Positions 1 through 42,312 of a stretch of DNA of 64,000 bases are shown here, one piece after another. The notes beneath the pieces are model-generated. The model made no database searches and was not told the DNA's origin. It saw only the letters and a program-made list of their open reading frames with translations. The position numbers and the translations under genes were made by a program. The DNA lies in NCBI GenBank assembly GCA_050084515.1, contig CM114271.1, forward strand, positions 47,926,001 through 47,990,000. Reading direction: 5' to 3'. Origin of the DNA: Blasia pusilla (taxonomy: Eukaryota). Every line of letters starts with the position of its first letter. Position 1 is the stretch's first letter.

Positions 1-3000
1 CTCTCGCCTCTCTCGCCTTGAAGACTCAGCCTCTTTTCTTGAAGACTCAACCTCGGAATTCCTAGACCCTTTTGCCTTTGCTTTCAAACTCTCTGTGGAT
101 TTGTCCTTGGCGGTGACTACCTTGGACATCAACTCAGCTATCTCCATGGCTTGTTCTTCCGCATCTCCTTCCAAAAAAATTTCAGTCTTCATGAAGTTTG
201 GAATGTTGTCCTTGCCAACGACGACGGCGTCATACACCATGCTTAGGTTCTTGTTTGTCATCTCCTCCAGCTTGTTGAAGTCCAACCAGATTAGACAATT
301 CAATACCTTCCACTCGGACATGTTTTGTCCCATCTCCATGTCGTACATGGAGAATCCCTCTCCATCAAGAGGAGAAGCCCATAATTTGTAGGTTGCCGGT
401 AATTTTCGCAAGTTACTTGCATTCACAGAATAGATGAGGTACCTGTACACCATTCGCTAGGCAGCTCTTTGTCGAGATGACTCAGCCGCGTGGTTCTGAC
501 GATCCCACTTCTTCTTTGCGAAATATTATTTTCGCACGTCTATTTCCTCGTCCAGATCTGCCTGAGGAAGGATGTGATTCTTGAACATCGTCCTGAAGCC
601 AGGGTTTTTCGTCGGCTTATCCCTAATATCATCAGGCCACAGTTCAAAATCTTTTGCAGCCTCTAGGTTGGCCTCCTTTGGAACTAGCTCAATATTTTTG
701 AGCTCCACTTCTAGACCCACCATCATCAACTTCCCAAGAAGTTATAGCGCATCCTAGAAGGACCATTCCGTAGCCAATATGAGATCACTGGGTCTGATAC
801 GCCCAAAGGGTGGTGTGCCGCCCGCTTCTTCGCCTTGGTGCCTTCAAGATTGATTTTCATGAGTCGAATCCGCCTAAACTCTGATATCCTGTGCACGCAA
901 TCCAAAGAGACCTTCTCTCCAATTCGACCCTGTGGGTCTTTGTCCCTCTTCTGCTAGCGCTCGATTATTGCCTTCAACTCCTTGTAGAACTCCGGGCCAA
1001 GTTCGGGGTTGAGGATTTCAATGTACCGCTCTATCTTTCTTGCAGTGTACTTTGTAGCTACAGACACGGCAGCCTGAATGAATTTGGCCCGTTCCAAGGA
1101 CGAGACATTTTCCCTTCGTTCCAGTTCCAATGTGGCGCTCTTCTTGGCTGCATGGATCTTGGACCATCATAGAATCGTGACCGCTGCATCTTGGGAGATG
1201 AAAGTAATTTCCCAAGTCTTCTTCTTTATTTCAGCGCCCTTCGCCAGCATCTCATCGACCAGGTCCTCACCGAGGAATCCCTTGTACTCTGATGGGGATA
1301 GCGTAAGCACCTTCTTGACTCTGTTGAATTCCAAGATCCAGTGGTGGGTGACGTTCCCCTTGGATACAATCCTCAAAATGCAGAGACAAGGTTAGAATAA
1401 TGATCCCTTGCAACCCTTCAATTTCCGTCTGGTTGCACCGGAGTTTTCATTGCATAGTGAGTGCAACCTGTTAGACTCCGATGGGTTGCACCACTCTCGA
1501 CAGATTGCAAGGAAGTGCAATCCGTTGGACTCCAAGTGGTTGCAAAAATTTCTTCGAGTTGCAATCTCTTGGAGGCCCAATGTAGTTTCTGCAACAAGTC
1601 GGACTCTCGGTCGGACTCTGACGGGTTGCATCACTGTCCGCAGATGGAAACGGTTTGCAACCCGTCAGGGCCCGATGGGTAGCACATTAATGTCCATCGG
1701 CATGAGGTGACACAACCCGTCAGAGTCCAACGGATTGCAGGAAGTCCCCAGAAGCATAGTTCAATCCAAATTTTGACCCAAAAGAAATTTGGTTGCAACC
1801 CGTTGAACTCCAATGGTTTGCAAAATGACTTCCATTCAAAGTGAAGTTTCTAGATGAAACGTGTGTTCAGCAACCCGTCGGAGTCCGACGGGTTGCAAAA
1901 TGGTCTTGTATAGATGTCATCGAAGGCCTAAAATCAACCCATCCGGCTCGGACGAGTTGCAAAAGGCCAAATAATCAACAAGTAGGAGGAACTTTTGGGG
2001 AAAATGGAACCCGTCAGAGTCCGACGGGTTGCTTTTTGGCCAAAAGTGACGAAAAACTAGGTGATTATTTTACCTTTGGCAACCCGTTGGAGTCTGACGC
2101 GTTGCTTTGAGGCCTCTGATGACTTGTAAAGAAGACCATTGTGCAACCTGTCGGAGTCCGACGGGTTGCTAAACATAAGCAACATCCAGAAATCTCCCTC
2201 GAAAGCAGAGTCATTTCGCAACCCGTCAGACTCCGATGGGTTGCAGTAGCTCGGATTTATCCAAAAAATTGGCTACCAATTTCTCATTTTGCAACCCATT
2301 GGAGTCCGACACGTTGGTGTAGCCCGGTTCATCCAAAAAACTGGCTACCAATTTCTCATTTTGCAACTCGTCGGACAAATTTCAGGATTGCCAAGCGAAA
2401 TCTAATGGAAGTCCTGATTTCAACCCATCAAAGTCCGATGGATTGCTGGATTGTACTCGAATTTCCCGTGCAATGTCAGAAAGGATTGTGGCTATCCACT
2501 CCTACGATTCCTGCCAATCTACTATCTGAACATGTTTGCAATCCTTCGGACTTCGACAGGTTGAAGCAAACAAAAATTATTGAGAGAAATATGAACTTAT
2601 ATATTCATGGAATACATTTCCATCTCCACCATTTCCATGTGATGCGGAAATGGATAGAGGACGACTACCCTCACGCAGAAATGCACTTCCAATGAATTCG
2701 GGCCCTCCTCAGCAAACTCTGACCATGCCATGTACTTGTGGTTTCCATCCCATATAAAGAAGTAGAGGTTCCGCATCCAGCTGTATTGTGTTCCTTCAAT
2801 AGCTCTTCTGAATTCCTCGTTTCTGATCCTCCAAAATGTGTCCAAGGCCTCTAGGTCTTCTTCCATCACCAGAGCCTACGTTCCATGTTCATCATAAGGC
2901 TGAACATAGAACGGAGGGAAGCTATCAACGTAGGATGTTGTCGTAACCGACTGCTTCAGCTTTGCGATGTCCTCGTCAGACTAAATTTTGCGGACGTATT

Positions 3001-3940
3001 CTATTGTCTACAGTCAAAAAAGTGGAATTCTTGGGGACTTGTGACCCTCCACCACTGACATTTGCTTAACAACTTGCCACAATGGCGAGGAACGCCAATT
3101 ATAAGGTGCTTTTCAGATTTTTCCAATTAAGAAAGGAATTGAGAATGCGATTTCAAATATGCCATTGTCTACTTACCCGCTCAAAAATTGGTTGAGTGTC
3201 GATGCCAACCAGCTGCTCTAGGATAGCATGTGGCAAGTCCATAGGAAATTCATCGATGTGATAGAGGTCGATTTCTTCCATCGGGCTCAATGACAATGAC
3301 GACTCTTCTCGTGCTTCTTCAGAGATGTCCACCATCTCCACACTTGTGTCCTCATGACCTCCTCGTCCGCCTCTTGAACTTCTTTTGTTTCCTCAACTGA
3401 TTCTAAGTTCATCGTGTCTCCAGACCTCGTCGGGGACATATCCTACATCTCAACATTGTTCGTTGGACGGGTGGGGCTTTCTTCCACCGCGATAGCTTTT
3501 TCTCTCCACACTTTCGCCAATTCTGCTCTCCTGATGGAGGCGTTGAGACGCTTCTTCTCTCGCTTCTCATCCGCAACTCTTTTCTTCAAAGCCTTATATG
3601 CCTCAGCCTTCGCATTCTACCTTGCGAGCTCCTCCAGAGCAAGATTTGCCACAACCTCTTGCCTGTGCATTTCTGCTTCCCTCTCCCGGTCCTCTATTTC
3701 TTGTTGCCTAATTTTTGTTGCCGAGCAAGGGCTAGGAGCTGGCGGCGCAGGAGTCTTGATGGACTCGGGAGTGACGCTCCCAACCTTTGTTACTTGTGTT
3801 TTCTTCCTTTTCATTGTGCATCTTGATTGATTCTTCTTCCTCGTTAATGTTATCTACACATGTGCACTCCAGAAATCCAATCGACTGCCTAAACTCTCAA
3901 AGCGTCGATTGATTGTCTCAACCCAACTCTCAAACCATCA
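1..3940 (-). pseudogene. Decayed spliced accessory gene of the MULE-like element, with a ParB/Sulfiredoxin-like domain; continues past the window start
   Basis: Minus-strand ORF pieces at 3617-3814 (basic, charged), 3153-3341, 2597-2869, 1167-1376 and 526-729. Reading through two TAG stops (2981-2983, 2876-2878) gives YVRKI*SDEDIAKLKQSVTTTSYVDSFPPFYVQ...LYFFIWDGNHKYMAW. Inferred intron 1372-2600 joins in phase (mutated ATAAGT donor, AG acceptor). Start position uncertain. Confidence 0.65.
1409..2565. repeat. Array A: about 17 interspaced copies of the 29-bp palindrome TGCAACCCGTCGGA-N-TCCGACGGGTTGCA
   Basis: Examples: agcaacccgtcggagtccgacgggttgca at 1869, tgcaacctgtcggagtccgacgggttgct at 2142, cgcaacccgtcagactccgatgggttgca at 2217. 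Period about 55-75 bp with mostly unique spacers. Confidence 0.95.
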
Positions 3941-4092
3941 TTTCTTGAAGCACCGTTACCTTCCAATGAAGGGCTTCGAGAAATCGACGTGTTCAGTTGA
4001 GGCGGGGACCTCAACTTCCCTGAGGACTCGAAGGTGGAGGAAGAGCTCCAGCTGAAATTGCAAAATGAAAAAGGGAAATTAGCAAAAATTGT

Positions 4093-4103
4093 GCCTTATA
4101 TAC
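4093..4103 (-). promoter_or_regulatory. Candidate TATA box for the minus-strand accessory gene
   Basis: GTATATAAGG on the minus strand, upstream of a pyrimidine-rich stretch and the first ORF pieces. Confidence 0.3.
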
Positions 4104-4193
4104 TTTCCGAGCCGTTGAGGTGACCATTGGTTCGTGGGAACCGTTGGACCGATGGAAACATCGGCCGTTACGGTGCTTTGCATGTGGGAAACG

Positions 4194-4484
4194 TGCAACT
4201 CGTCGGACTTGATGTACATGCAACCCGTCGGACTCGAAGGACGTGCAACGCGTCAAAGTTTGACGGGTTGCACGCTTCCCTCAGCGTGGGACATCAAGGC
4301 GAGGTCCCCAATAGTTAGATTCCAAAGATTCGCAAGCAAATGGATTCCGTGGCTTTGCAACCCGTCAAAGTCTGACGATTTGCAACCATTCGCATTCCAA
4401 CGGATTGCAACTTCTCGGAATCCGATGGGTTGCAACTTGTTAGAATCTGACGGGTTGCAACTTGTCGAAATCCGACGGGTTGAA
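4194..4484. repeat. Array B: same palindrome, partly as contiguous 25-bp tandem units sharing TGCA, in the divergent intergenic region
   Basis: tgcaacccgtcaaagtctgacgatt/tgcaaccattcgcattccaacggat/tgcaacttctcggaatccgatgggt/tgcaacttgttagaatctgacgggt/tgcaacttgtcgaaatccgacgggt at 4356-4480, plus copies at 4194-4272. Confidence 0.92.
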
Positions 4485-4681
4485 CTAACCTTGTGAATGT
4501 CTAACCTGAGGCAATCTGAAAACTTTCAACGTGATCAATCTCAAGGGAAATTTATTTTTATTGCACTTTCCTTGGTGCAGACACTGTCAAATAATTTCAC
4601 CTACCAACTAACAGCTTGTCAAGAGAATAACAGTCACTATTCACTATAAATTAAGCATTCTCATTCTTATTCTCATTCTCC

Positions 4682-7600
4682 TTGTGGAATTATCTGCAAA
4701 TGGATAATTATGTGAAACTCACACATGGCAATCATCTAGCGGCCCTTCCTCAATCACATATAATTCGACCCCAAGCTATGGAGTCTTACATACAAGTGGA
4801 TGAAAATTTCCTTTCACTCCGATTTCTTCTCCACATTGGAACAATCTTTATTTCCAAGGATGTTAGGGTGGATGGTATGGAGGACCTCGTAGGTGACACA
4901 CTCCAGCCAGTGATTGGAGACTCTAAAGTATGGACCTTCCTACCTTACACAAATGGACAATACATAGTTTATGGTTTTCCTCTGAAGCCTTTTGTTTTCC
5001 AAGTCGACGGTCTGCAATTTCCTAGTGCACTGAGCTCTATGTTTGCCACTCCCAGCTCTGTAGATGTAGCATTGACTCCAACTTCACACATTCGTGACAA
5101 TGTTGTACTTCTTGAAGAGATTCTGGATGTTGTCAACCTGACGGGATGTGCTCGACACCAACCGGACCCTGCCTTTCTCTACTCGTTCCTCTTCCGAGTT
5201 TCGGGCAATAATTTCATGTCATTTCTGCCCTTGAAAATGTTCAAGCACATTCTTGTCAACGAGTTGCTGCCCACGTACGATGGTAATTGCATTTTTGAGT
5301 TGCCTCCACTTGCTGGTCTTGCTCAAAAGAAAAATGGAGGACACTTGAAGGGTATGGACAGAAAGTCTCATTGTCATTGATGGTGCAGGCTTCAGCGGAC
5401 TAGTGCTTCAATTCCATGTGGTCCTTGGATTTTTCTCACCGCCAATGCGTTGGAGCCCTAGTGTAGAAGTCCAAGCTGCCCATTTCTAGAGTGAAATGGT
5501 TGAGTCACTACGTCGCAATTCCCCCCAAAGAATGCAGAAACTCCTTATGAGGTTGGTGCCACCATACCACCAAGAGGCCATCGATGTCCTCATTGTCAAG
5601 CATCCCCTTTCTACATTAGAGCATATCCAGCATAAATATTTTTCATTGCGCACGACTATAGTTCTACATCTGAGTACACCACACTGGCAGTACATGTTGG
5701 TTCCCACACTCATCATGTTATTGGTGCAATTCAGAGACACATCAAGGAGGATGTGGCAAAGAAAGTGGATGAGATGTATAGAAACACTCCGAGATCAAAT
5801 CCCGGAATGATGAAGTTGACAACAGCATCACAAATTTGTGAACAACTACTTGGAATCCCTAGCCATGGCAAGAGCATGGCTTCTGAGGAGAAACAACTCT
5901 GGGAAAATCTGGCATTTCTCGCTGATCTTGAATGCTTCAGGGACTTGTTGCATTAAATAAAAGTACTTGATGGAAAGATGGTCGGAATAGATGCCATTGC
6001 GAGAATCAAGGATAACTCCAGATTTCCTTTTATTTAGAGATGAAAATTTATGTGCTAGGGAGGCGAGGGATCTAGAGCTGATGTCTTCAAAATATCTACA
6101 ACAAGGCCGTCCAGTGGCCTCGATCTTATTGATCGAATGAGGGAAGGAGAAGATCTTTATGGCAGTTGGGTAAGCTTTGATATTTGCTACAGGGTGCTGA
6201 ATGGATGGTTGACCATGGGTGCTCACGTTTACGACCATGTGGAGAAGGGACTCAAAACCATATTTGTTTGTGAGGTAAAAGCAAAAGATGTTGGCACTTT
6301 GAACATGTGTTGGTTACTCTTATTGGAGGTGGTGAAGGAAAAAAAAGGCCACCTCCTGAAATTTATGGGTTCATGGTGGACAATGTACAACTAGGATTGA
6401 TTGCTATCAAGGAAGTGTTATCGGGTGGAGAAGTTCAACGAGAGAGGGAAAGGTTGGATGCTTTCCATTGGCAATAGTCTATGACTCGGTACACCAAATC
6501 TTGCATCGAGGAGAATAAGAGAATAGAGCATGTGGCTCTACTCCAACGCTGCAAGGACAGCAAAACCTTGAAACATGCCATGGAGTGCCAAGAAGAACTT
6601 CATGGGTGGTGGAGGAAGCATGCAATTGAGAGGAAGTACAAGGAGTTTTGTTTTTGGCTCACTTGGCTTAGTACGAATGAGACAATGGGGAAACTTCCTA
6701 CGGGAGGTGAGTTCAGAATTTCCTCCTTTCCAGCTCATGCTGAGAATTATTTGAAAAGTTGCAGCTCAAGTTGCAACTCGTCGAAACGATAGGGATTCCG
6801 AATCTGAGAAGCCAAGCAACCCGTTGGATACGACTGGTTGCTTCAGTGTGGAACCCATCGAAACAATAAGGATTCCAAATCTCAGAAGCCAAGCAACACG
6901 TCAAACTCGACAGGTTGCATCAGTCTCCAACCCATCGGATCTCGACGGGTTGCAAGTAAGAAAGTATGCTAGGTCCGCAAATAGCTGGTTTTCAATGGAT
7001 GGCAAGTTGCAAGTAAGAAAGTATACTGAGTTTGCAAACCGTCGGTTTTTACGGATTTCAAGGTGCCTAAGTGTGCAACCCATCGGATTCTGACAGGTTG
7101 CAGACCTTTGTCTATCGACACTTCTTATAATCCATCAGAATCCGACGGGTTGCACATGGATTTTCTTGGCCAGACTGGCCTCCTAATTGCAATCCGTCCA
7201 ATTTTGATGGGTTGCATTAGGAGCTTCCACATTCTGGCAACCCATCAGAAACCGACGGGTTGCACAGACGTTTTTGGGATGCCTCTGACTTGCAGCCCGT
7301 CCGATTCCGACGGGTTGCAGACCCTTTTTTGTGGATAATTCTTGCAAGCCATCGGAATCTGACGGCTTGAACATGGATTTTCCAGGCCGGACTGGCCTCC
7401 TACTGGCAACCCATCCAATTCCGGCGGGTTGCAATAGAAGGTTCTTGGGTGGTGTGACCCGTCGGAAACCGACGGGTTGCACAGACGTTCCTAGGATGCC
7501 TCTGACTTGCAGCCCGTCGGATTCCGACAAGTTGCAGGCCTTTTTCTCTGGACACTTCTTGCAAGGGGTCAAAATCCGACGGCTTGCACATGGATTTTCC

Positions 7601-9305
7601 AAGCCGGACTGGCCTCCTACTTGCAACCCGTCCGATGTCGATGGCTTGCAGTAGGAGGTTCTTGGGTGGTGTGACTCGTGGAAAACTAACGGGTTGCACA
7701 GACATTCCTGGGATGCCTATGACTTGCAATCCATCGGGTTCTAACAAGTTGCTATTTTCTTTGCTTACAGAGCTTTTTCCGTTCCTTTTTCACATTTTCG
7801 TCTCTGCAGGGATTGAACATTCATAAAAATGCCCTTTGCCTCAACATAAGTGGAGCCAAGAGTTTTGATTCCTCTTGGAGGTTGTCACAAGCATGCCAAA
7901 AAATTTCACTCGTGGAGGCATGCCAACAAGACCAGGCAAGGGCAATGCTACAGTCTGCATCATCCCATATCTTCCTCACAAAAGGCAAAACCAAGGAAAG
8001 GGACCTTCAATTTACGAGCTCTATGTTAGGGCCGGTGTGAGATCTGGTGATGAGAAATTGTATGTGGAAGCCTTCAATTGGTGCATAGCCGAAACTCCCT
8101 CGAGCAAGACGTCCACATTGGTGGGGACATTTGTGGGCGTGTTTTAAGACATCTAATACAAATGGTGGTAGAGCACTCTGAGCGAGACTCCTGGAGACCA
8201 GATAAGTACCTTGACTTCAAGCAAGTCAAGTGTCAACATCAAGGAATGAACCCGATGATTGATTTGGATGAAGAAACAACCCCGCCCAGGTATTCAGAGA
8301 CACCAGATTGCTCCCAAATTTTAGTAGAAGTAACTTCTCCAAAATCAGTGAATGGTGAATCAAAATCTCTCTGTTGGTGGAACTTCGCAACATCTGGTCT
8401 TTGGGGTGGTACAACAGTATGGGATTCCCGTCATTGAGGTGGATCGTAACCTCAAGAGATAGCATATATCTCAAAGCAACCCTGGACGTGGACCACTTGC
8501 AAGGCAGGATCCGATGGCATTAGGAGAGCATGCGGCACTTTTTTGAATAAGAACTATACAGGACTACACGACCACTGCCAGGCTTCTAGGGGCTAAAAAC
8601 CATTGATTGTTTCACTAAGACGAGGGATCAATTGAAGTACTTCTTCTGCCCAAATGAATCATGCGCTTTTGAAAGTCTTATCCAGCTGCAATTGGAGCTC
8701 CAGGGAATACCCCCATGATTTGGCCCATTGTTGTTGGTACCAATTGCACTTAGGAGGAAGTGGACAATCTTACAAGTGTCGGTTTCAGACTCGTAGATGG
8801 AGGGTGTTTGGAGCATTTTTACATTACAGAGACCTTCGCATTTTGGATTTAACCTAAGATTGATGTCAACATGTACCCGGAGAAAGTGGATGATCGCAAT
8901 CCACTATTTCTGTTCGAGTCTAGAAATGGGGTGAAGAGAAATAGAATGCATAGGCCAACGATGGAGAGAGCAAAGCAAATCGCATCAGCTCGAGAGGAAA
9001 ACATGGAAATCATCGCCACAAAAGACGTTCATAGTGGAAATGGAATAGGAAGGATGTATTGGGTCAGGAACAACACTGTGAATTCAAGTGTGAGAGGGGT
9101 GTATGTGGTACACATCTATTGCTTTCCCACATGTTCCTGTGATGACTTTATGCAAAGAGAGAAAAGTGGGAAAAGGTATTTCCCTTGTAAGCACACGTAC
9201 TATGTGTTGCTTGTAGTTTTAAGAGAGTCGGAGGTAGGAGTAGGAATCCACCAACCAATTTCGTCCCTCAAAGAAGTGCAAAGTATCCTAAACAAACCAC
9301 TTTGA
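4682..9305 (+). pseudogene. Mutator-like (MULE) transposase pseudogene: GCM-like Zn domain, DDE core, C-terminal SWIM finger
   Basis: Frameshifted pieces: CVGAL-x-CRSPSCPF...CPHC...HVGSHTH (about 5440-5715); WVSFD (first D, about 6170); GFMVDN (second D, about 6370); LDAFHW, matching the (C/D)xxH motif; SWIM CSCDDF...PCKH (about 9130-9195). In-phase GT-AG intron 6707-7809. Confidence 0.75.
6770..7753. repeat. Array C: palindrome array in the transposase intron, with a higher-order unit of about 217 bp (4 palindromes) repeated about 3 times
   Basis: Units begin at about 7126, 7342 and 7560, with recurring spacers such as catggattttcc...gactggcctccta and cagacgtt...ggatgcctctgact. The array lies wholly inside intron 6707-7809. 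Confidence 0.93.
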
Positions 9306-9766
9306 GGATGCAAAATGAGGTCTTAGATTGTACTTTAAATTAAAGTGCCAAAATGTTCATTATGAGCTTGAACTATAATCAGCTATGGAAACCAGATGCA
9401 TTTTTTTCAGACCTTGGATGGAAAAAGTGATTTGTTCCATATTTGTGATTCCAATGATTTTTCAGTTTTTTTTATTTTGTGCAAGTTGCAACCCGTCAGA
9501 TTCAGACGGATTGCCAAAGTGTGGAAGAGAATAAACAAATTTGTGGTAGTGACTAAGCACAGAGAAAAAAATTTGCAAAAATGTTCACAAAAAAAACTTC
9601 CTCTCTTCAACCCAACGGAAAATCTGTTCAAATCACAGGAAGCTCTCTTCAAAAAAAAGTATCTCTTTGGGTTGAAGGTAGTTTCCTCTCTCCTCTCTCC
9701 TTTCTTCCTCTTATCTCTCTCCTCTCTTCCTCTCCTCTTATCGCGCCTCCACGCCCTCATACCACA

Positions 9767-9865
9767 CCTCCAATTTCTTACAACTCTTAGTTCACCTCCA
9801 CCCTCTCATACCACGCTTCCAACTTCTTACAACTCTTAGTTCACCTCTACCCGCAGTTCCAACTT
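9767..9865 (+). repeat. Short tandem duplication (about 50 bp) following a CT-rich tract near the likely element end
   Basis: ccaa(t/c)ttcttacaactcttagttcacctc occurs twice. Confidence 0.7.
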
Positions 9866-11620
9866 CTTGACTCCAACTTTGGCCTCAAATTAGCTATCGG
9901 AAGCACCTCATTTATACCAAAGGTGATTCTGTGACTATCACACACATGTGGAAAGGACAACAATAATTCACAGTATAACACATGTAACACACAATTTTTT
10001 GTGTAGATTAACAGGCTCCGTGTAGAATCCTTTCGAGCCGCCAATGAAAGCACGACATGCATCTCTAAATAAGATAGCAAATTGAAAAAGGCGAAAAATA
10101 GTCCAATGTCCACCTTTCCACATGTAGTAACCCTTAGAGTAACCCCTCATGTTTCAGTAATAATATAGATTATCGGATGGATTTCTGCCTCACAAGTAAC
10201 CACAGGTGTGCATTTATAAATTAGTTCATATACTTACATATTTACATTTTTGGAAAATCGAAGTAGAGACCGAGTACTTATCCCGAATTGGTGCAAGAAG
10301 GTGACCTGCGCAGGCCGGTTATTCCGGCCGTTCTAAACCAGGAAATACTTTTAGAATACATATTTAAGGTTGAATAGTTTGAAAGGTAATATAGAAAATG
10401 GGTTTCACTCGTAGGATTGCTTACTATCTTTTTCCCATCTCTTGAACGTCTTCTGAATAAATGTGCAGATCCCAAGGAACGTCGTTATTACTCGGATCAT
10501 TGCAGTGTATGAGTGAATTACTCTCGGCGGGTAGGGTATCCGCCGATGCTATTGCGAGTTGAGTTGCTGAAGGGTATTTTTCGCAGACATTTCAGAATCC
10601 GGAGTGTATACATATGATTCTCCCTCGTGCAAACACAAATTGATTAAAAGGTCCTCTACTTCATGGTATGGACAAACAGGAAGTCTCTTTCAGATGAGAC
10701 TGAAAGCAGAATCCGTGCGACGGTCGAGTAATGTTGTAAGGGAACATCTATTTTCTACGGGAATGTCCCAAAGCCGGATTCAGAACAAACAGCTACAAAC
10801 AATTTTTTTTCTCAACCTTTCACAGATCTTTTTTGTGCTCTTCTAGACTGGATTAGTATGTAAACGTCCATTAAACTGTCAGTTGTGATTCCAATCAGCT
10901 TTCCCCATTCGCGCCTCTCAGACATGAAGAGCATTCGAAGAGATCTGCACATTCATCCTTTTTTTTTATTCTTGTTTCTAAGTTAATTGTACTATAATAT
11001 AATGAAACAATAACAATTAATCATCACCATCCATTTCAACCCTATGAACAATGAAAATGTAATCTACCTATTATGACCGCACAACACAAAAGAGCTACTT
11101 CTACATCCCCGAACATCCAGTCAATCTATAGGTGTGTTTGGCGTCTTCATGTTTGTCACCCAATTGAAAACGTTACACTGAATTCCAAGCCATCTACAGA
11201 ACTGTGTCGCCATATTGAAAACGTGCTTAGTCAACTCCAAACCAGAAACAAAGGAACCGTTCTCTTAATTTTATTGATTCACCCCGAGTTTCTCTGGTAA
11301 AAACATTCACTCACAGAAGACCTCACACATGAGGAAGAATGGTCAATCCGCCCACCTATACCCAAGAGACTTTGGGGAGGAGTTGCAACAGTGACTATGT
11401 TGGCTTTTATTCTACTTGCTTGAGTTGTGATTATTTACTGCCAACTTTGCTTGGCTGTGGTTCCTCTCAATCCCATGTTTCGAAACTCAAATGCCATCAC
11501 CTCATGATTCATAGGGCGAACACTGGGCCGAGAAAGCCATTAGGTTTTTTATCCTTTCGTCAATCTGACCTTCCAGTGTTGACATGTGGTGGAGTAAACT
11601 AACTCAACAAGCAGCTGATT

Positions 11621-17489: not shown

Positions 17490-18794
17490 CTAGTATCCTC
17501 GGCATCTGACTTTTCTCTCAGCCCAATCTCTGAACAATGCAGCCCTGTCGGCTCTACCTGCTATGCCTGCAAGTTTCTCACTTTCGTCAGGCTGAGGTGT
17601 GTAGGAGTTGTCATTGTTGAGATGTACATCAGTGTGATCTCCTGGCTCGCGTTCCCCAGCCAACTGACAGAAGTTATGTAGAACGCAGCACGCAATAACC
17701 ACTTGAGGCGCATACTGCAGCCCAATGTTCAAATTGGTCAAAATTCCCCATCTCTTCTTGAGAATGCCGAATGCGCTCTCGATGCATGTGTGAGCCTTCA
17801 ATAACTCAGCATCAAAGTCGTTCTGTAACGGTGACGATGACGATCCATGAGACGCTTGAAAGGGAGTAATCAGGAAAGGCATTATGGGGTAATCCGTATC
17901 TCCGACCACGAAAGGACATATCTGCCTGCCGCTAATCTGAGCGACTGGCTGCTCTAGCGCTCTTTCCTCCTTCAACTTATGCCAGAGACTACTTGACCGC
18001 AAGTGAATTCCATCATGTAGTCCTCCAGGTGCATTGCAACAAACGTCCCAGAAAACCTTGTCAGCATCACAGACTCCTTGGAGCAGAACGCTGTAAAACT
18101 TTTTATTATTCCAGTAAAACTTGGGAGTATCTTGCAGTCGAGGTTTCCTCCACAGCTTTACGTGGGTACCGTCGATTACACCACACATATTTGGAATGTT
18201 CGTCATATTTTGAAACTTCGCGATTGTGCTCGCGAGCTTCGTCCCCGTAGGAATACTGATGAACTTCGAGTACAGCTTATCTCTTGATGCCAATATCTCC
18301 GTGATCTGCTTAGTATATTCGGTTACAGTGGAAGGACCGACGTTGTACAAATTAGCAATTGTACTGGGAGGAAGACCGAAGGCAAGCCGGTGCAGAACCA
18401 TGGCAACCACCCTATCTATCTCTATCGGGTCCCTAACCGTATTATTAGACCTCTCAATGAAAGGACTCAGTTCCGCAATCAGCGTTTGAAACGCTCTGTA
18501 AGACATCCGATACTGCGCGTGCCAGTGTGAGTCCCTCACCCGTTCGTCCGAGCTCCACGTTCGATTCTGCACCATATCCCAATAAGTGGACTGTCGAGGG
18601 ATTTTCCAAAGTTTCTTGTTGGAATTACTTACAGAACCGTAGTAGGCCGCCACCAGGACAACAAAAATTGCAGCTACTGGAGTCTCCAGCGCCGACATAG
18701 ATGCCATATCTGTATCCAAATGCCCCCCTTGCATATGTGCCCAGAGCAGTAGCATCTCACACAAATCCATCCTTTTCTCCTTGTGCACGGACAT
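17490..18794 (-). CDS. HARBI1/ALP1-like PIF/Harbinger transposase-derived protein (DDE_Tnp_4), 434 aa, intact
   Basis: Uninterrupted ORF with YRMSYRAFQTL, an HTH region (LHRLAFG...IANLYNVGPST), CGVIDGTH, VVGDTDYP, IESAFGILKKRW and ACCVLHNFC. Confidence 0.92.
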   Translation of the reverse strand: MSVHKEKRMDLCEMLLLWAHMQGGHLDTDMASMSALETPVAAIFVVLVAAYYGSVSNSNKKLWKIPRQSTYWDMVQNRTWSSDERVRDSHWHAQYRMSYRAFQTLIAELSPFIERSNNTVRDPIEIDRVVAMVLHRLAFGLPPSTIANLYNVGPSTVTEYTKQITEILASRDKLYSKFISIPTGTKLASTIAKFQNMTNIPNMCGVIDGTHVKLWRKPRLQDTPKFYWNNKKFYSVLLQGVCDADKVFWDVCCNAPGGLHDGIHLRSSSLWHKLKEERALEQPVAQISGRQICPFVVGDTDYPIMPFLITPFQASHGSSSSPLQNDFDAELLKAHTCIESAFGILKKRWGILTNLNIGLQYAPQVVIACCVLHNFCQLAGEREPGDHTDVHLNNDNSYTPQPDESEKLAGIAGRADRAALFRDWAERKVRCRGY

Positions 18795-34489: not shown

Positions 34490-34912
34490 TATTCCACAAT
34501 GTTAATCGAAGGCGAGAAGCTAGATAAGCAAAATTACAATATTTGGCAATTTCGCATTTAGCAATTTCTCACGGGTCAATAACTATGGGAAGTTATTATA
34601 GATTATGAGGCCAAACCAAAACGGGATTCAACAAACTTTCATGTTTCCACTTGGAACAAACGCAAGGCAAGTTCTTCACTACATTTCAATAACGATAAGT
34701 TCTCCAATGATTGGTCACATTCAAGATTTTGATATTCCGAAGGAGAATGGGATGCACTGGAAAAAATGTCCATTCACTAGAAAGGCGAGAAAGCTTCAAT
34801 TGAAACAACAATTGAACAAAGTGAGCAAAAAATTAATGATTATGTTTTGAGGTATCAAACATATTGTTGATTAGTTGAATAGTATTGGAGTGATTGTAGA
34901 AGAAGATGATGA
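34490..34912 (+). mobile_element. Ty1/copia gag fragment
   Basis: EGEKLDKQNYNIWQFRI, MIGHIQD and ARKLQLKQQLN across frameshifts and stops. Confidence 0.7.
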
Positions 34913-37430
34913 TAGTTTGGTCTACTTGGCCAGTAGTCTTAGTGAATTTTGATCTACCTCCTTGGCTCTGCACTAAGAAGTTTTTCTTCCAATTGGCTAT
35001 GATTATTCCTGGGAAAGAATTTGTGACATCCAATAACTTGGATGTCTGCTTGTCTCCACTAATGGAGGAGTTGCAATTATTGTGGAAAGAAGTCAAAGCA
35101 TATGATAGTACTCAACCAGCAGGAAGGGGTGGATTTGTTCTTAGAGATATGGTAATATGGACAATTAAAGACTATCCTGGTCTTGGGATCATATCAGGCC
35201 AATCCACCAATGGATTGCTTGTATGTTGTGTTTGTGGCCCGCGGGTGTTCTCATACTACTCTAAGCCCTTACAAAAGCCCACATTTCAAGGCCACAGAGG
35301 TTACAAAGATAGGGGTCAACCATACAGGAGGAATTCTATGGTGTAGTTATTCAATCAGAAGGTCGAGACATGCACATCTCCGGGTCGAGTTTAAAGTGTT
35401 GAGATAGTAGAGGGGGCCCAATTGAAGATGGAATTTGGAGATGCCCCTAAAACCAAGCAAAGGCGAGGTGAACCTCGCCTTGTAGATCCTTACAAAAAGT
35501 ATGGCGTCCAAAGAAGGAGCATACTTTTTGACTTGCCTTATTGGAAGGTAAGACTAATATCACTTTTCTTGAAGTGTATAATTATTTTCAATTTCTTCAT
35601 TGCTTTAGCCATAACAATACTCTCAATCTTGTGCCCATTGTGGCCGTGATTGATTTTCAGGACTTGTTGATTCGACATACTTTGGATTTGATGCATTGTG
35701 AAAAAAATCTTGTTCATAATAGAATCAAAACCATATTTGGCTTACGGAAGAAAGATTCTATCCAAGTTAGTGAGGATATACAGATAAGGGGTATTCGTCC
35801 TCACTTATAGCTTCAATCTCATCCTACAAGAGCCACAATTAAGTTGAAACCAAAAGCAGATTATATGCTAACAGCTGATGAGATGAAAGTTTTCTATGCT
35901 AGAGTAAGGGCACTCAAAGTGCCTATTGGTTATGCTGGTGCTTTACAAAAGTACATTCTACGATAGAAGTATTGAAGATTGAGTTACACTCAAGCTCATA
36001 AGATACCTGAACTACTACATTTGGTACTCACACAAAGTAGGGAAGCTTAATCTTGGTTAGTCAGTTAAGCGCGATTATCTTAACTAGGGTTAGTTAATCA
36101 CAATTAGTCTAACCCGAGACTATGGTTAAGGTTAGGGTTAGGGTTGTTTGTACATACTGTATATAATTGAGAAGGGGACCAGCCTCCATTCATTCTCTCA
36201 TTGCAAATTTTGTTCTTCATGGTGGTGTGTGAGTGTGAGAGCCGTTTCCCACCAGTTATGCTTCTTTAGCACTTTTCCAAAGAAGTTGGGGAGCTTAAAG
36301 TCCCATGACTTGCATATCTTTATGCAACAATTATTGCCATATTGCTTACGTGGTTTGATGAAAGCTCCCATCAGAATGACAATAATGAGGATGTCGCAAT
36401 TATTTTGTAGACTGTGTGTAAAAACATGGGATCCAATAGATATGGGATCTTTGAAAGAGGATGTGTCAACCACTTTATGCCTCATTGAAATTCATTTTCC
36501 CCCTTCTTTCTTTGATGTCATGACTCATCTCATGATTCATCTAGTTAAGGATCTTGATATATGTGGCCTTGTTGCAACTCGATGGATGTATCCCATTGAG
36601 AGGTACTTGGGTGTCTTGAAAGGGTATGTAAGGTCTCGAGCTAGACCACACGCTTGTATGGGTGAAGGATATATACTCGATGAAGCCTTGGGATTTATCA
36701 CATAGTACATGCAAGATTATACAATTTTACAAACAAGGGTGTGGGATGCACATGAAGAGGATGGTGTTGTTGGCAAAATACTGGAAGGTGTCGGCATTAA
36801 ACAACAACTGGGTGTTGAACTACTCAAAGTAGCAAACAAATACGTTGTAGAAAACATCGAATGCTTCACAAGCTTTATGGAGTAAGTATCTCTTGATTTA
36901 ACCATGAAGGAAATTTGCCATGTTATTCATTAATACTCGATACTGAGCCTTGGGTTGACTAGATATACATGATTTTGTTCCATGCAGAATATATAGTGTC
37001 AAGAAGACATGTGACAAGACTTTCTCTCAATGGATACCTACAAAGATCAAGAATTCAGTCACGGAGGTGAAGGAAGTAGAAGATTTGGCTATCAAGTTAT
37101 CTGTACCTCCTTCACGCCATTATCTTTCTTATAAGAAAATGAAAGCATATGGGAATCATTATAGAGTTGAAGATAGTGGGTCGTTTGCTACATATGACTT
37201 TGGAATTGCATCTATATTCTTATCCAAGAATCATGGTGAAGTTAGAGAGATACTTATGTGGGGGTCTTAATAGATATCCTAACATAAGACTACGGTATGA
37301 AAGATTGAGTGGTGTTGATGAGAGGGAGATGGGTTCAATCAACTTGGGACCCTCCTCATCCTTCAATGATTCGTGATGAAAATGGCTTCTTGTTGGCTAA
37401 TTTCAAAACACTTTTTCCATCAAATTGTGA
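34913..37430 (+). mobile_element. CACTA/En-Spm transposase pseudogene (Transposase_21 and DUF4218-type regions)
   Basis: STWPVVLVNFDLPPWLC...IIPG...LDVCLSPLMEELQLLW...WTIKDYPG; RSILFDLPYW; LIRHTLDLMHCEKN; LGSLKSHDLH...FPPSFFDVMTHL...RWMYPIERY. Confidence 0.9.
35970..36280. mobile_element. 311-bp insertion (probable solo LTR) in the CACTA transposase
   Basis: Flanked by AGAAG at 35965-35969 and 36281-36285; interrupts R*K|LGSLKSHD; degenerate tattgaa...ttccaa ends. Confidence 0.6.
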
Positions 37431-38317: not shown

Positions 38318-41026
38318 TGTCGTGCGCATACATATGGCTACAAAACATACATCGCTGGTCAAATCTACACCACACAACACCGATCTTCCCCACACACAGG
38401 TAGATCCACACATGTACATAAATCAATTCATACATATACATATAGATCAGGCAACAAAAGTAAAGAGTAGTAAAAACGGCACACCCAGTCTAAAACTCCA
38501 CTCCTCAATCTACATCGGCATATCGAGCCTCGTCCACCCTGCGCTATCAAGGAATCGGGACGCTAGCAACCTATTCCTATCTCACACACATACAAGAGAG
38601 ATGCTCCAATGAACCAACATGAGAAAGATGGCTTAGGAAAGTCGTCTTCCTCTCTTATATAGGGTTGGGAAGAGCCAAAAGGATCTTCCCCTAAAAATAG
38701 CTATCCTCCAGGTAACCTGCGCACACAGGTTACCAGGGGTGGGTGACCTGGTAAACAAGTCACGCGACTGTGAAAGACCTCAGCAAGAAAGTTGTTAGAA
38801 ATGACGTTCCTAACATAACGGACCTATCCTCAACCTTATCCGACACTGTGGGACAAAGTTACACTCAAGACAATCCGTTGGATCCTATGCCCTATTCACG
38901 ATAGATCTCGGCCTATCAGCTACTCAGATGTGATAATTATCATGCACATACATATCTCTACAGAGCATACATCATTGATCACATCTACACCACACAACAC
39001 CAATCTTCCCCACACGGGTAGATCCACACATGTACTTCTGTACATGTGTCAATTCATACATATACATTGAGATCACACAATCGCCCCCCTAGCTGGCATT
39101 TGGATCCCCTAACTCCAGATAGAAAATATCACATCTCTCTAACATGACCTACTACCCTATACACATCCGTCCACGTTCAAAAGATGACATGTCGCACAAT
39201 TGCGCACATGATTCTTCCAAACCATACCATGACGTCCTTCCAACATGAGGACTCTGATCGATAATACCTCGCGCAAACGTAGGATCGTGCATCCTCCAGT
39301 GACATCTAGTGTTGTGGGTGCCGCTTGCTGTAAATACACGTAATCTCCAAGATAAAATCTCCTAATCCCTAGATGATAACCTCCTCCACGAATGGTCGCG
39401 TATCTCTATGTTGAGCAATAGCTACGTTCTCAAAGGCCATATGCATAACTCTACGAAAAATCTTTGCCCTCTATGAACATGCTTGTATTCACATATTTGG
39501 ATCATCAAGATCTAACACCTCCGCGATGGCACATCAAATAGTTGCAGGTAAATCTGGCTCTCTCCCAAAGAGGAAAAAGTACGGTGAAAATGACGCCAAG
39601 GATGCATGCCAACTAAAGCGATAACACATAGCCAACCAGGGCAAATGTAGGTCCCACTCCCTCAACTGTCCCCGCTGCAAGCCATACATCCTCTCTTCAC
39701 CATATGTACTACTCTCTCCGCCAACCCATCTGCCTCAGGATGATCTCTGGACGTGGTGTGGTGATCTATCAGCGCTTGATCACACAAGGCCTGAAACTCT
39801 CCCCTGAACTCGGTACCCTGGTCAGTCAACACCTCCGTCGATGCACCAAAGTGACTAAGCATAGAATCTAGAAACGCATAAGTTGTTCCCTTGCTTGCCT
39901 TATCCGGTAGTGCCACCAACTCTATCCACTTGGAGAAATGCTCCATCATCACCAACACGTACCTATGATGACGCCCTGTCAATGGCAAAGGTCCCGCCTA
40001 GTCTAAACTCCACCAGTAACCTAAACCCATAATCGGCAAAGGATGTAACTGCGGAGTGGGATCATTGAAGGATGCTCGCACTCTGTCACATACCATATAT
40101 CTGGCCACAAATTGTTGTTCCCAAGTATGCATGCCGCGCCACCAATACTGAACGTGGAATAAGCTGTAAGTACACTTTACTCCAAAATGCCCCAACTCCT
40201 CATGGGCATGTTGCACTACACGTGCTTGTTGGGAAGGATGAGGTACCACTTGTATCCTACCATCTCCCCATACCCACAACTCCCTCTTCTCGTCATCCCT
40301 CTGAGTAAGCATTGCTCCTAGACCCAACATGCTCCAATCCGTATGTAACTAGAATGGGCGACCCCAAACCGATCTCTGTAAAATGGGTGAGGATGTCAAC
40401 TTGTCCTTGAGCTCCTGAAATGCTCGCTCCTAATCATCTCTCCATAACCAAACCTGATCAAGTTTTGTCAATAAGATCAAAGACTTTGCGATCGCACTAA
40501 AACCCTTGACATACCGTCAATAGAAGTTCGCCAGTCCAAGAAACGCTCGGACTTGACTCACATTTGTTGGGCGTGGAATCTGCGCAATAGCCTCCACCTT
40601 CATCTGTTGAACGCCTAACCCACTCGGTTATATGGTGTGTCCCAAGTACTCAATCTGATGCTGAAAGAATCTGCACTTGCGTGGATGTAACTTCAGTCCA
40701 TGTTACTGCAATCGTTGAAACACCTCCTCTACGTGTCGCTCATGCTCCTCAACCGTGGAATTGAAGATGAGAATATCATCTATGTAACATCGTACAAAAT
40801 CCAAGCCAGCTTGAATCCTATCCATCACTCTCTGAAACTCCGCAGGCGCGTTCTTCAACCCAAATGGTAAGAACCGCCATTGATACAAGCAATCTCTCCC
40901 GAACCAATCTATCCCCCAGAATGTTGTCTTCTCCCTGTCCTCCAACCTGATAGGAAGCTAATGATAGCCATCACGGAGATCTAAGGTACTGAAGATCTTT
41001 GCATGCCCTACCACATCAAAGATCCT
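38318..41026 (-). mobile_element. Ty3/gypsy element, 3' half (RT, RNaseH, integrase, PPT, 3' LTR 38318-39079), decayed
   Basis: LPFGLKNAPAEFQRVMD...CYIDDILIF; HAHEELGHFG; FSKWIELV...LTDQGTEF...HPEADGLAER; PPT aggggggcgat next to a TG...CA LTR. Confidence 0.9.
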
Positions 41027-41028
41027 GG

Positions 41029-42312
41029 TCATTGAGGTGGATTACAACCTCAAAAGGTGGCATATATCTCGGAGCGATCTTGGACGTGGACCCACTTGTA
41101 GGGCAGGATTTGATGGCATTAGGAGAGCATGCGGCATTTGCCTAGATTTTGGGGATTCAAAACTTTTGATCGTTTCACGAGGACCAAGGATCAATTGAAG
41201 TACTTCTTCTGCCCAAATGAATCCTACGCTTTCCGAAATTCTTATCCGGTTGCCATTGGAGCTCCACGGAATACCCCCACAATTTGGCCCATTGCCGCAG
41301 GTAGGAATCGCACTCAGGACAAAGTGGAAAATCTTACAAGTGCCGGTTTCAGACTCAAAGACGGAGGAAGTTCAGGGCATGTTCGCATTACACAGACCTT
41401 TGCATTTCATATTCAACCCAAGATTGATGTCAACATGTACCCGGAGAAGGTGGATGATCTCAATCCACTATTTTTGTTTGAGTCTAGAAATGGGATGAAG
41501 AGATCTCTTCATCCCATTTCACATTCTGTTTCTAGAAACAAAATGTGTAGGCCAACGGTGGAGAGAGCAAAGCGAATCGCATCAGCTTGGGAAGCAAACA
41601 TGGAAATCATCGCCACAAAAGATGTCCAGAGTGGCAATGGAATAGGAAGGATGTATTGGGTCAAGAACAACATTGTAAATTCAAGTGTCACAGGGATGTA
41701 TGTGGTGCACATCTGTTGCTTTCCCACATGTTCTTGTGATGACTTTGTCCAAAGAGAGACAAGTGGGAAAAGGGATTTCCCTTGTAAGCACATGTACTAT
41801 GTGTTGCTTGTAGTTTTAAGAGAGTCGGAGGTAGGAGTAGGAATCCACCAACCAATTATGTCCCTCAAAGAAATGCAAAGTATTTTAAACAAACCACTTT
41901 GAAGATGCAAAGTGAGGTCTTAGATTGTACTTTCATTTCAGTGAACCTTCACTTTGAGCTTGAACTCTATTCAGCCCAGGGCAAACGATAGATTCTTTCC
42001 AACCTTGGATGGAAAAAGTGATTTATTCCACATTTCTGATTCCACTGATTTTTCAGTTTTTTAAATTTTGTGCAAATTGCAACCCATCGGATTTAGATGG
42101 GTTGCCAAAATATGGAAGAGGAAAACAAATCTGTGGGAGTGCCTAAGCACTGAGAACAAAAGTGCAAAAAAATTCACAAAAAAGTTTCCTCTCTTCAACC
42201 CAATAGAAACTCTCTTCAAATCACAGGAAACTCTCTTCAAAAAAAAGTATCTCTTTGGATTGAAGGTAGTTTCCTCTCTCCTCTCTCCTCTCTTCCTCTC
42301 CTCTTACCGCTC
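41029..42312 (+). mobile_element. Internal fragment of the MULE-like element (SWIM region plus 3' flank), homologous to about 8430-9750
   Basis: Colinear high similarity from gtcattgaggtggat onward. The C-terminal part of ORF 41129-41902 matches ORF 8871-9305. One palindrome copy at about 42078, matching the one at about 9488. Confidence 0.95.

Follow-up and report, generated by a model that had tools for sequence, protein, structure and literature searches.

What is an array of palindromic repeats, separated by intervening sequences, doing in the genome of a liverwort? The question is raised by a 64,000-nucleotide stretch of Blasia pusilla DNA (GenBank assembly GCA_050084515.1, contig CM114271.1, positions 47,926,001 to 47,990,000 of the forward strand; hereafter the window), near the left end of which a first, sequence-only reading had noticed nine palindromes arranged as in clustered regularly interspaced short palindromic repeats (CRISPR). 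That reading had proposed that the array fills an intron and serves either as a phased protein-binding array or as an RNA of serial hairpins processed into small or guide RNAs. The palindromes are real and far above chance. They recur in four separate clusters, which belong to one decayed, high-copy, DNA-transposon-like element with two diverging genes, here called gene A and gene B. In our opinion the palindromes are probably binding sites for a DNA-binding protein encoded by the element itself, a reading that draws on analogy with known transposons and to which we would assign a probability of roughly 0.6.

One palindrome in four non-coding clusters

The repeated unit has the consensus GCAACCCGTCGG-ANT-CCGACGGGTTGC, that is, a 27-bp palindrome in which three central bases separate two 12-bp half-sites in inverted orientation. 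Together with its TGCA...TGCA flanks, it corresponds to the 29-bp palindrome of the sequence-only reading. A scan of the first 12 kb allowing up to 8 mismatches retrieves 38 units, all within 1410-9514, compared with a mean of 0.02 in 50 shuffles. Under a limit of 3 mismatches the 27-mer still has 11 matches (0 in 100 shuffles), and the 12-mer half-site with up to 2 mismatches is matched 61 times against 1.76 expected, with 59 of these matches inside 1425-9514. Over the 38 units the identity to a single consensus is about 83% (166 changes in 988 positions). The four clusters are the following:

1410-2564: array 1, 16 of the 27-bp palindromic units, with single half-sites in addition at 1497, 1591 and 2363, from the consensus scan
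4195-4483: array 2, 7 units (4220-4483) plus extra half-sites, in the divergent intergenic region
6773-7752: array 3, 14 units (6927-7752)
9488-9514: single unit in the 3' non-coding tail, 183 bp beyond the gene B stop codon

In array 1, palindromes were found where they had first been seen, with units starting, among others, at 1870, 1934, 2006, 2079, 2143, 2218, 2291 and 2420; at 2363 there is only a lone half-site. The nine listed repeats thus exist, but they are part of a longer array of 16. Nor is the palindrome confined to this array, since it forms the three further clusters listed above and is also present at 42079-42105, in a second copy of the element.

The regular interspersion described at first does not hold. 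Consecutive centres in array 1 are separated by 53, 54, 86, 54, 55, 83, 75, 64, 72, 73, 64, 75, 73, 129 and 118 bp, and its units are degenerate, each departing from the consensus by 0 to 6 mismatches (65 changes in 416 positions). In array 2 five units follow directly on one another, at a period of 25 bp and without any spacer, and array 3 is organized as a 217-bp higher-order repeat in three copies (7023-7673) with four units per copy. Consequently, the length of what might be called a spacer goes from -2 to 102 nt over all clusters, and from 26 to 102 nt in array 1. In other words, a single palindrome occupies four distinct locations, under three regimes of spacing.

The placement of the clusters is exclusively non-coding, in two putative introns, in the divergent intergenic region and in the 3' tail. 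Specifically, every cluster falls between coding segments, represented by the open reading frames (ORFs) of gene A and by the gene B segments that homologues map to 5078-5647, 7813-8120 and 8409-9293, and array 2 lies mid-way in a region of about 890 bp between the two putative start codons (minus strand, at about 3814; plus strand, at about 4700).

The unit, whether exact or with its CpG positions made degenerate, was not found in metagenome, viral or prokaryotic genome collections, which is expected because this is plant DNA and which yields no related copies. A full-text literature search for the motif returned unrelated primers only, and no published description of the motif, of the family or of such liverwort repeats was found in a search that left most subscription journals and Repbase outside its scope.

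The element that carries the clusters

Around the clusters, the following parts of the element can be recognized:

1-3853, minus strand: gene A, a decayed coding region that runs off the window start, its ORF chain broken by single stops
1372-2596, minus strand: putative gene A intron, acceptor AG at 1373-1372 after CTAAC and a pyrimidine tract, donor GT at 2596-2595 or alternatively at 2615-2614
about 4700-9305, plus strand: gene B, a pseudogene of a SWIM-zinc-finger, Mutator-like protein
6707-7809, plus strand: putative gene B intron, donor GGGAG/GTGAGT (GT at 6707), acceptor CTCTGCAG/G (AG at 7808-7809)
41028-42321, plus strand: second copy, 5'-truncated, 81% identical to 8430-9734

Gene A has no Pfam family in its 13 ORFs, DUF1985 and DUF287 included, and neither homologues (query 2600-2875) nor relatives in the PDB were found. 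The idea that genes A and B might be inverted paralogues was considered and rejected, given that the tblastx matches between them involve the palindromes only.

Gene B is more informative. Its reading frame has 9 in-frame stops across 4655-6394, a frameshift near 6274-6394 and 7 further stops in 8409-8852, and this copy is therefore dead. A search of a representative protein library gave 64 relatives at E<=1e-3 (best 6e-22; 30-42% identity), which align to the three coding segments given above; the stretch 4655-5377, used as a query, found nothing. The family bears a SWIM finger, as 24 of the 64 homologues match the Pfam SWIM model at E<=0.01 and 17 of them reach the curated cut-off. In the window copy, a CxC...CxH pattern lies in 8853-9302 and the SWIM model gives the corresponding stretch 13.9 bits, short of the cut-off of 19.6. 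When the conceptual translation of 6059-6706 and 7810-7860 is read by eye, it contains two aspartates in D-67-D spacing, a DxxH at +29 and, 125 residues beyond the second D, an E-motif. Muta1, a fold-back Mutator-like element (MULE) of Aedes aegypti, has D214, D283, H307 and E419 according to PMC5225508. The motif spacing of gene B would resemble that of Muta1 closely, and for this reason gene B is called here Mutator-like without being filed as a MULE.

Some observations on this protein family deserve mention in their own right. At 7849-7860, aligned with an ES motif conserved among the homologues (SGAES in P0011), the window reads SGAKS, so that in this copy a K stands in place of the E presumed to be catalytic. 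The 64 relatives (P0001-P0064) are eukaryotic proteins of 400-750 amino acids with a Cys-rich region and a C-terminal SWIM finger, otherwise without a Pfam match; one of them, P0021, is fused to endonuclease and reverse-transcriptase domains of the LINE type. Sequence searches of the PDB with five ORFs gave nothing meaningful, and P0013 has only weak structural neighbours, of SWIM type.

The two larger arrays nearly fill the putative introns, array 1 representing about 94% of that of gene A and array 3 about 89% of that of gene B. The latter intron would split the catalytic region, and in tblastn comparisons the alignment with homologues resumes at 7813-7825, just past the putative acceptor. 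The first proposal of an array filling an intron is thus plausible from the splice-site sequences at 1373-1372 and 2596 or 2615, and the same holds for the host of array 3, both introns remaining putative. A sequencing run whose RNA nature is only guessed provided 19 contigs, all less than 99% alike and 16 of them less than 90%, which settle nothing on splicing or on small RNAs; one of these contigs stops at 1372, adjoining the proposed gene A acceptor.

That the arrays nearly fill their introns could also be explained in a different way. That is, arrays 1 and 3 might be separate non-autonomous fold-back elements, inserted in both genes and tolerated as introns. The fold-back structure held by array 1, described below, would suit such elements, and members of the Mutator group with tandem repeats in their inverted termini are known, as the relevant portion of PMC5499845 reports. 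However, no target-site duplication is seen at the array borders, the alignment of gene B with its homologues breaks exactly where a canonical donor and acceptor lie, and, where DNA contigs of other copies depart from the window sequence at 6773, the consensus of their loose ends is array-like. These contigs indicate, therefore, that other copies also carry an array at that place, out of register with the present one. Taken with these observations, a nested insertion of two independent elements appears highly improbable.

The element belongs to a family of many copies. In three DNA runs at low coverage, all from one organism, 4017, 38556 and 3161 contigs are at least 80% alike on 1-10000, and these are found in every identity band. 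The second copy within the window keeps the 3' palindrome at 42079-42105, which differs from that of the first at 5 of 27 positions, all of them transitions and 4 at positions of CpG columns. The homology between the two copies ends at about 9734 and 42321, respectively, so that the single unit is 220 bp inside that right end. Starting exactly at the homology end, after a CT-rich tract, a 49-bp tandem repeat (2 copies, 82% identical) occupies 9735-9832; it could mark the 3' end of the element or a breakpoint.

Growth and decay of the arrays

The sequences between the units of array 1 reveal how the array was built. All 105 pairs formed by its 15 spacers were compared, with the 99th percentile of shuffled spacers as cut-off, and two direct and five reverse-complement comparisons exceeded it. 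Two duplications underlie the best matches:

2211-2367: 72-bp direct duplication, 2.2 copies (Tandem Repeats Finder period 72), source of the duplicate spacer pair
1794-2245: large imperfect inverted duplication centred on the unit 2006-2032, with three spacers mirrored on each side

The strongest match is the direct duplicate of 2245-2290 and 2318-2360 (97% identical over 32-37 nt). The next three are mirror-image matches, pairing the spacer at 1897 with that at 2106, 1961 with 2033 and 1822 with 2170, and their reverse-complement scores of 35, 24 and 21 compare with a null 99th percentile of 18. These matches arise because 1794-2019 is an inverted copy of 2019-2245, the halves of which align with arms of 190 nt that are 74% complementary. 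A weaker mirror pair surrounds the unit 1657-1683. Some joints between palindromes, for example from 1898 to 2142, have sides of less than 30 letters and may be a repeat mapped onto itself.

Overall, 8 of the 15 spacers lie in duplicated blocks (2 direct, 6 mirror-image). The view of mostly unique spacers with one duplicate pair was right about the pair but not about the uniqueness of the others. The remaining 7 spacers have no detectable relative and mostly no mutual similarity, while the units flanking them share one consensus. The spacers have no match elsewhere in the window beyond their own arrays, and neither array 1 nor its spacers match any of 50,697 phage records. The spacer duplications show that the arrays expanded through the copying of blocks, in direct and in inverted orientation, and not through the uptake of foreign spacers. 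It is probable, although an inference, that the mirror-image duplications were favoured by the palindromes themselves.

If duplication built the arrays, it might also be all there is to explain. In such a case they would be functionless internal minisatellites, in which a palindromic seed was multiplied by replication slippage and fold-back template switching, with neither a protein nor an RNA making use of it. The block duplications are evident, comprising the 72-bp direct one, the 217-bp higher-order repeat in three copies and the mirror-image ones centred on units. In addition, when the two copies in the window are compared, the palindrome has not been preserved better than its flanks, and tandem repeats are common inside transposons, as far as the sections of bioRxiv 10.1101/2024.12.02.626372 that treat them go. 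Nevertheless, duplication alone would copy the spacers together with the units, and 7 of the 15 spacers of array 1 have no relative while their flanking units keep the consensus; furthermore, a single unit is found in four separate places under three spacing regimes. The earlier proposal of a constraint acting on the repeat rather than on the spacers hence remains reasonable, the units being about 83% identical to one consensus and most of the non-duplicated spacers unrelated. A purely passive origin appears unlikely to us, though it deserves serious consideration.

The units are also decaying. In particular, 105 of the 166 substitutions in the 38 units are G>A or C>T, the G/C columns change about three times as often as the A/T columns (146 changes in 18 columns versus 20 in 8), and the observed/expected CpG ratio of the window is 0.64. 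This substitution pattern is the one expected, judging from the sequences, for methylated repeat DNA that decays by deamination.

Decay offers the opportunity to ask whether the two arms of the palindrome have changed together, as would befit an RNA hairpin. In shuffles that preserve column composition, pairing between the arms is no better than chance, with 81.0% standard pairs against 81.0 +/- 0.7 and 259 of 500 shuffles at least as high. Similarly, the covariation score of the arms is 0.176 against 0.168 and is reached by 116 of 500 shuffles, and a separate test counted 326 Watson-Crick pairs against 329 +/- 5 in shuffled arms. The few double changes in the arms are those that CpG decay on both arms produces. 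This lack of covariation would fit two half-sites, each kept for itself, and not selection for a hairpin.

An action at the RNA level has to be weighed in this context. Specifically, intronic serial hairpins, and chiefly the 450-nt fold-back at 1794-2245, might give rise to double-stranded RNA and then to small RNAs that silence or regulate the family. Folding calculations are in line with this possibility, as 22 of 38 single units fold as RNA at -10 kcal/mol or better and the region 1780-2260 folds at -235.8 kcal/mol compared with -127 +/- 5.8 when shuffled (z -18.7); moreover, arrays 1 and 3 lie in putative introns. However, the stability of units and fold-back follows from palindromic DNA and from the inverted duplication, the latter explaining the long fold-back, and is not evidence of an RNA function. 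The arms show neither covariation nor excess pairing, the stems of the units are only 12 bp long, array 2 lies between the two genes and the unit at 9488 stands alone. Across the whole window, no Rfam family attains the gathering score, and the best match is MIR4227 with 31.6 bits against a gathering score of 100; the sub-threshold miRNA-like matches are caused by the palindromes. A tRNA search found none. The serial-hairpin or guide-RNA proposal of the sequence-only reading is consequently not sustained, and an RNA-level role of the arrays in general seems improbable.

Proposed binding sites, known systems and genomic context

A dyad site of two 12-bp halves, one consensus maintained in four clusters and a confinement to non-coding sequence that includes the divergent promoter region are traits that together match the sites of dimeric proteins. 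Between the two mechanisms first proposed, a binding array would accordingly fit best, by analogy with the systems discussed below. According to this preferred reading, the palindrome would be an operator-like site for a dimer, putatively of the transposase or of the gene A product, and local duplications, direct and inverted, would have increased the number of units wherever the sequence was free of coding constraints. In an active family, the palindromes would load the element with its own protein, possibly for the assembly of a transposition complex, for autoregulation of the divergent promoter or for counter-silencing. The present copy is a relic, its genes broken and its units decaying by C-to-T transitions.

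The spacing of the units bears on this model to some extent. In array 1 all 15 centre distances are within 3 bp of a multiple of 10.5 bp, with R 0.73 at that period and a nominal Rayleigh p of 3.6e-4, the distances being non-independent because of the duplications. A helical phasing of array 1 is thus suggestive, and the word phased, used in the first proposal, holds weakly at most.

Several observations weigh against binding by an element-encoded protein. Helical phasing is restricted to array 1, as array 3 gives p 0.35 and array 2 has its fixed 25-bp period. Gene A has neither the domains of VANC proteins (DUF1985, DUF287) nor a DNA-binding domain recognisable by Pfam, and the Pfam MULE domain (PF10551) is absent from the ORFs of the window and from all 64 homologues of gene B, so that the Mutator assignment rests on the SWIM finger and on the motif spacing read by eye. 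A comparison of 3850-4700 with 9300-10100 gave no terminal inverted repeat; the position of the clusters is internal and not demonstrably subterminal, with the left end of the element outside the window. As for the introns, one contig of the possibly-RNA run crosses the proposed gene B donor and reaches 6773, which keeps them putative. Lastly, between the two copies the 3' palindrome (22 of 27 positions the same) is no better kept than its flanks (81% overall), and both copies have therefore drifted neutrally since insertion.

The closest parallel is offered by the VANDAL transposons of Arabidopsis, members of the Mutator superfamily. As described in the relevant parts of PMC5735166 (Hosaka et al. 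2017), VANC21 binds a short motif that has accumulated as tandem repeats within the introns of VANDAL21, between its genes and in its terminal non-coding parts, and the target repeats of VANDAL21 and VANDAL6 occur in blocks gained and lost between copies. The repeats of the Blasia element are similarly distributed over two putative introns, an intergenic region and the 3' tail. The differences are nonetheless considerable: the VANC motif characterized in that portion of PMC5735166 is 9 nt long and non-palindromic, whereas that of the present element is palindromic and 27 bp long; neither DUF1985 nor DUF287 is matched in gene A; gene B has no Pfam MULE match; and the host is a liverwort, not Arabidopsis. 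Because VANC domains are absent, the array cannot be filed as VANDAL/VANC.

Muta1 provides a second term of comparison. The account of its termini in PMC5499845 describes nine 12-bp subterminal repeats with linkers of 3-4 bp that raise transposase binding and excision, both of which increase with the number of repeats, and some Aedes MULEs have a C-terminal SWIM finger according to the corresponding parts of PMC5499845 and PMC5225508. Similarly, array 2 has 12-bp half-sites with 3-bp linkers, within and between units. The Muta1 repeats, as far as that account of PMC5499845 extends, are direct and lie inside 145-bp terminal inverted repeats, 9 per end. Here, in contrast, at least 38 units made of inverted half-site pairs form internal clusters of up to 1.15 kb. 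Given that the clusters are internal and that termini are not seen in the window, the array cannot be filed as a classical subterminal or fold-back type either.

Non-coding regions of the maize En/Spm transposon (CACTA superfamily), its promoter included, contain repeated 12-bp motifs that are frequently arranged as inverted pairs. These motifs are bound by TnpA, an accessory protein encoded by the element that also regulates it. They are known only from subterminal positions, and the superfamily is different from that of the element discussed here; the CACTA match found elsewhere in the window belongs to another element and not to the palindrome carrier.

Finally, Rehavkus, Tetris and other fold-back transposons are Mutator-related and possess variable, expandable tandem repeats, according to the pertinent parts of bioRxiv 10.1101/2024.12.02.626372 and PMC6446971. 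Unlike those of the Blasia element, the repeats of Rehavkus and Tetris are described there as terminal, the hosts are insects and annelids, and Rehavkus has a PHD finger instead of a SWIM finger. Considered together, these cases suggest that the array may work like the repeat arrays of Mutator-type elements, transposon-borne recognition repeats being a known kind of sequence.

As to the purpose of the sites, a VANC-like counter-silencing system is a doubtful candidate, put forward by analogy. In its fullest form, the idea would imply a bryophyte Mutator-like family with a self-recognition of its own, independent of Arabidopsis VANC, in which a dimer of the gene A protein or of the transposase binds the CpG-rich palindromes and either senses or removes methylation or autoregulates the element, while the palindromes also drive inverted duplications that end in a silencing hairpin. 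We regard this scenario as tentative and rather unlikely to be correct in its entirety.

The DNA around the element is relevant to the layout from which the question started. The window is transposon-rich eukaryotic DNA, with the following Pfam matches outside the palindrome carrier:

17493-18794, minus strand: Harbinger transposase ORF, 434 aa uninterrupted, DDE_Tnp_4 / Plant_tran
34900-36702, plus strand: CACTA transposase pieces, Transposase_21 (E 2.8e-34) and DUF4218 (E 1.1e-30), an element separate from the palindrome carrier
39665-43575: long terminal repeat (LTR) retrotransposon, integrase at 39665-40348 on the minus strand (rve, Integrase_H2C2) and protease at 42907-43575
52415-53650, plus strand: two ORFs with weak PCRF matches (E 0.0058 and 5.8e-5), possible host-gene exons

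The Harbinger ORF is 88%, 80% and 67% identical to proteins of Marchantia paleacea, Riccia fluitans and Calypogeia fissa, respectively, and may be a young or a domesticated (ALP1/HARBI1-like) copy. The truncated second copy of the palindrome-bearing element occupies, in opposite orientation to the LTR retrotransposon, the space between its integrase and its protease, in which the reverse transcriptase would be expected; an insertion accompanied by a deletion, or a rearrangement, could account for this position.

In such a context, an adaptive array of the CRISPR type, with spacers acquired from invaders, can be addressed directly. The likeness is superficial and consists of partly palindromic repeats of about 27-29 bp that alternate with 26-59-nt sequences in part of array 1. 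By contrast, the repeats are degenerate, and the spacers vary from -2 to 102 nt, are absent in places and are duplicated, in both orientations, in 8 of 15 cases. They match nothing else in the window and no phage record, and the unit is absent from the viral, prokaryotic and metagenome collections. The ORFs scanned gave Harbinger, CACTA and LTR-retrotransposon domains and nothing else recognisable apart from the PCRF-like piece, and the proteins most similar to the Harbinger ORF come from liverworts. No cas gene appeared in this Pfam scan, a dedicated search with a cas or defence library not being part of it. Judged by the identity of the repeats, by the uniqueness and length of the spacers and by the genomic context, the hypothesis of a CRISPR-like adaptive array fails on every count and is refuted.

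The result thus mainly removes a false lead, in that neither a CRISPR-like layout nor a guide-RNA system is needed to account for the locus, binding-site arrays being an ordinary kind of transposon feature. It also draws attention to an apparently unclassified family of SWIM-bearing transposon proteins without a Pfam transposase match. If the binding-site reading is true, the element would represent a second, independent case in which a transposon has filled its introns and promoter with sites recognised by a protein of its own. Coming from an early-diverging land plant, such a case would bear on how widespread VANC-like self-recognition is.

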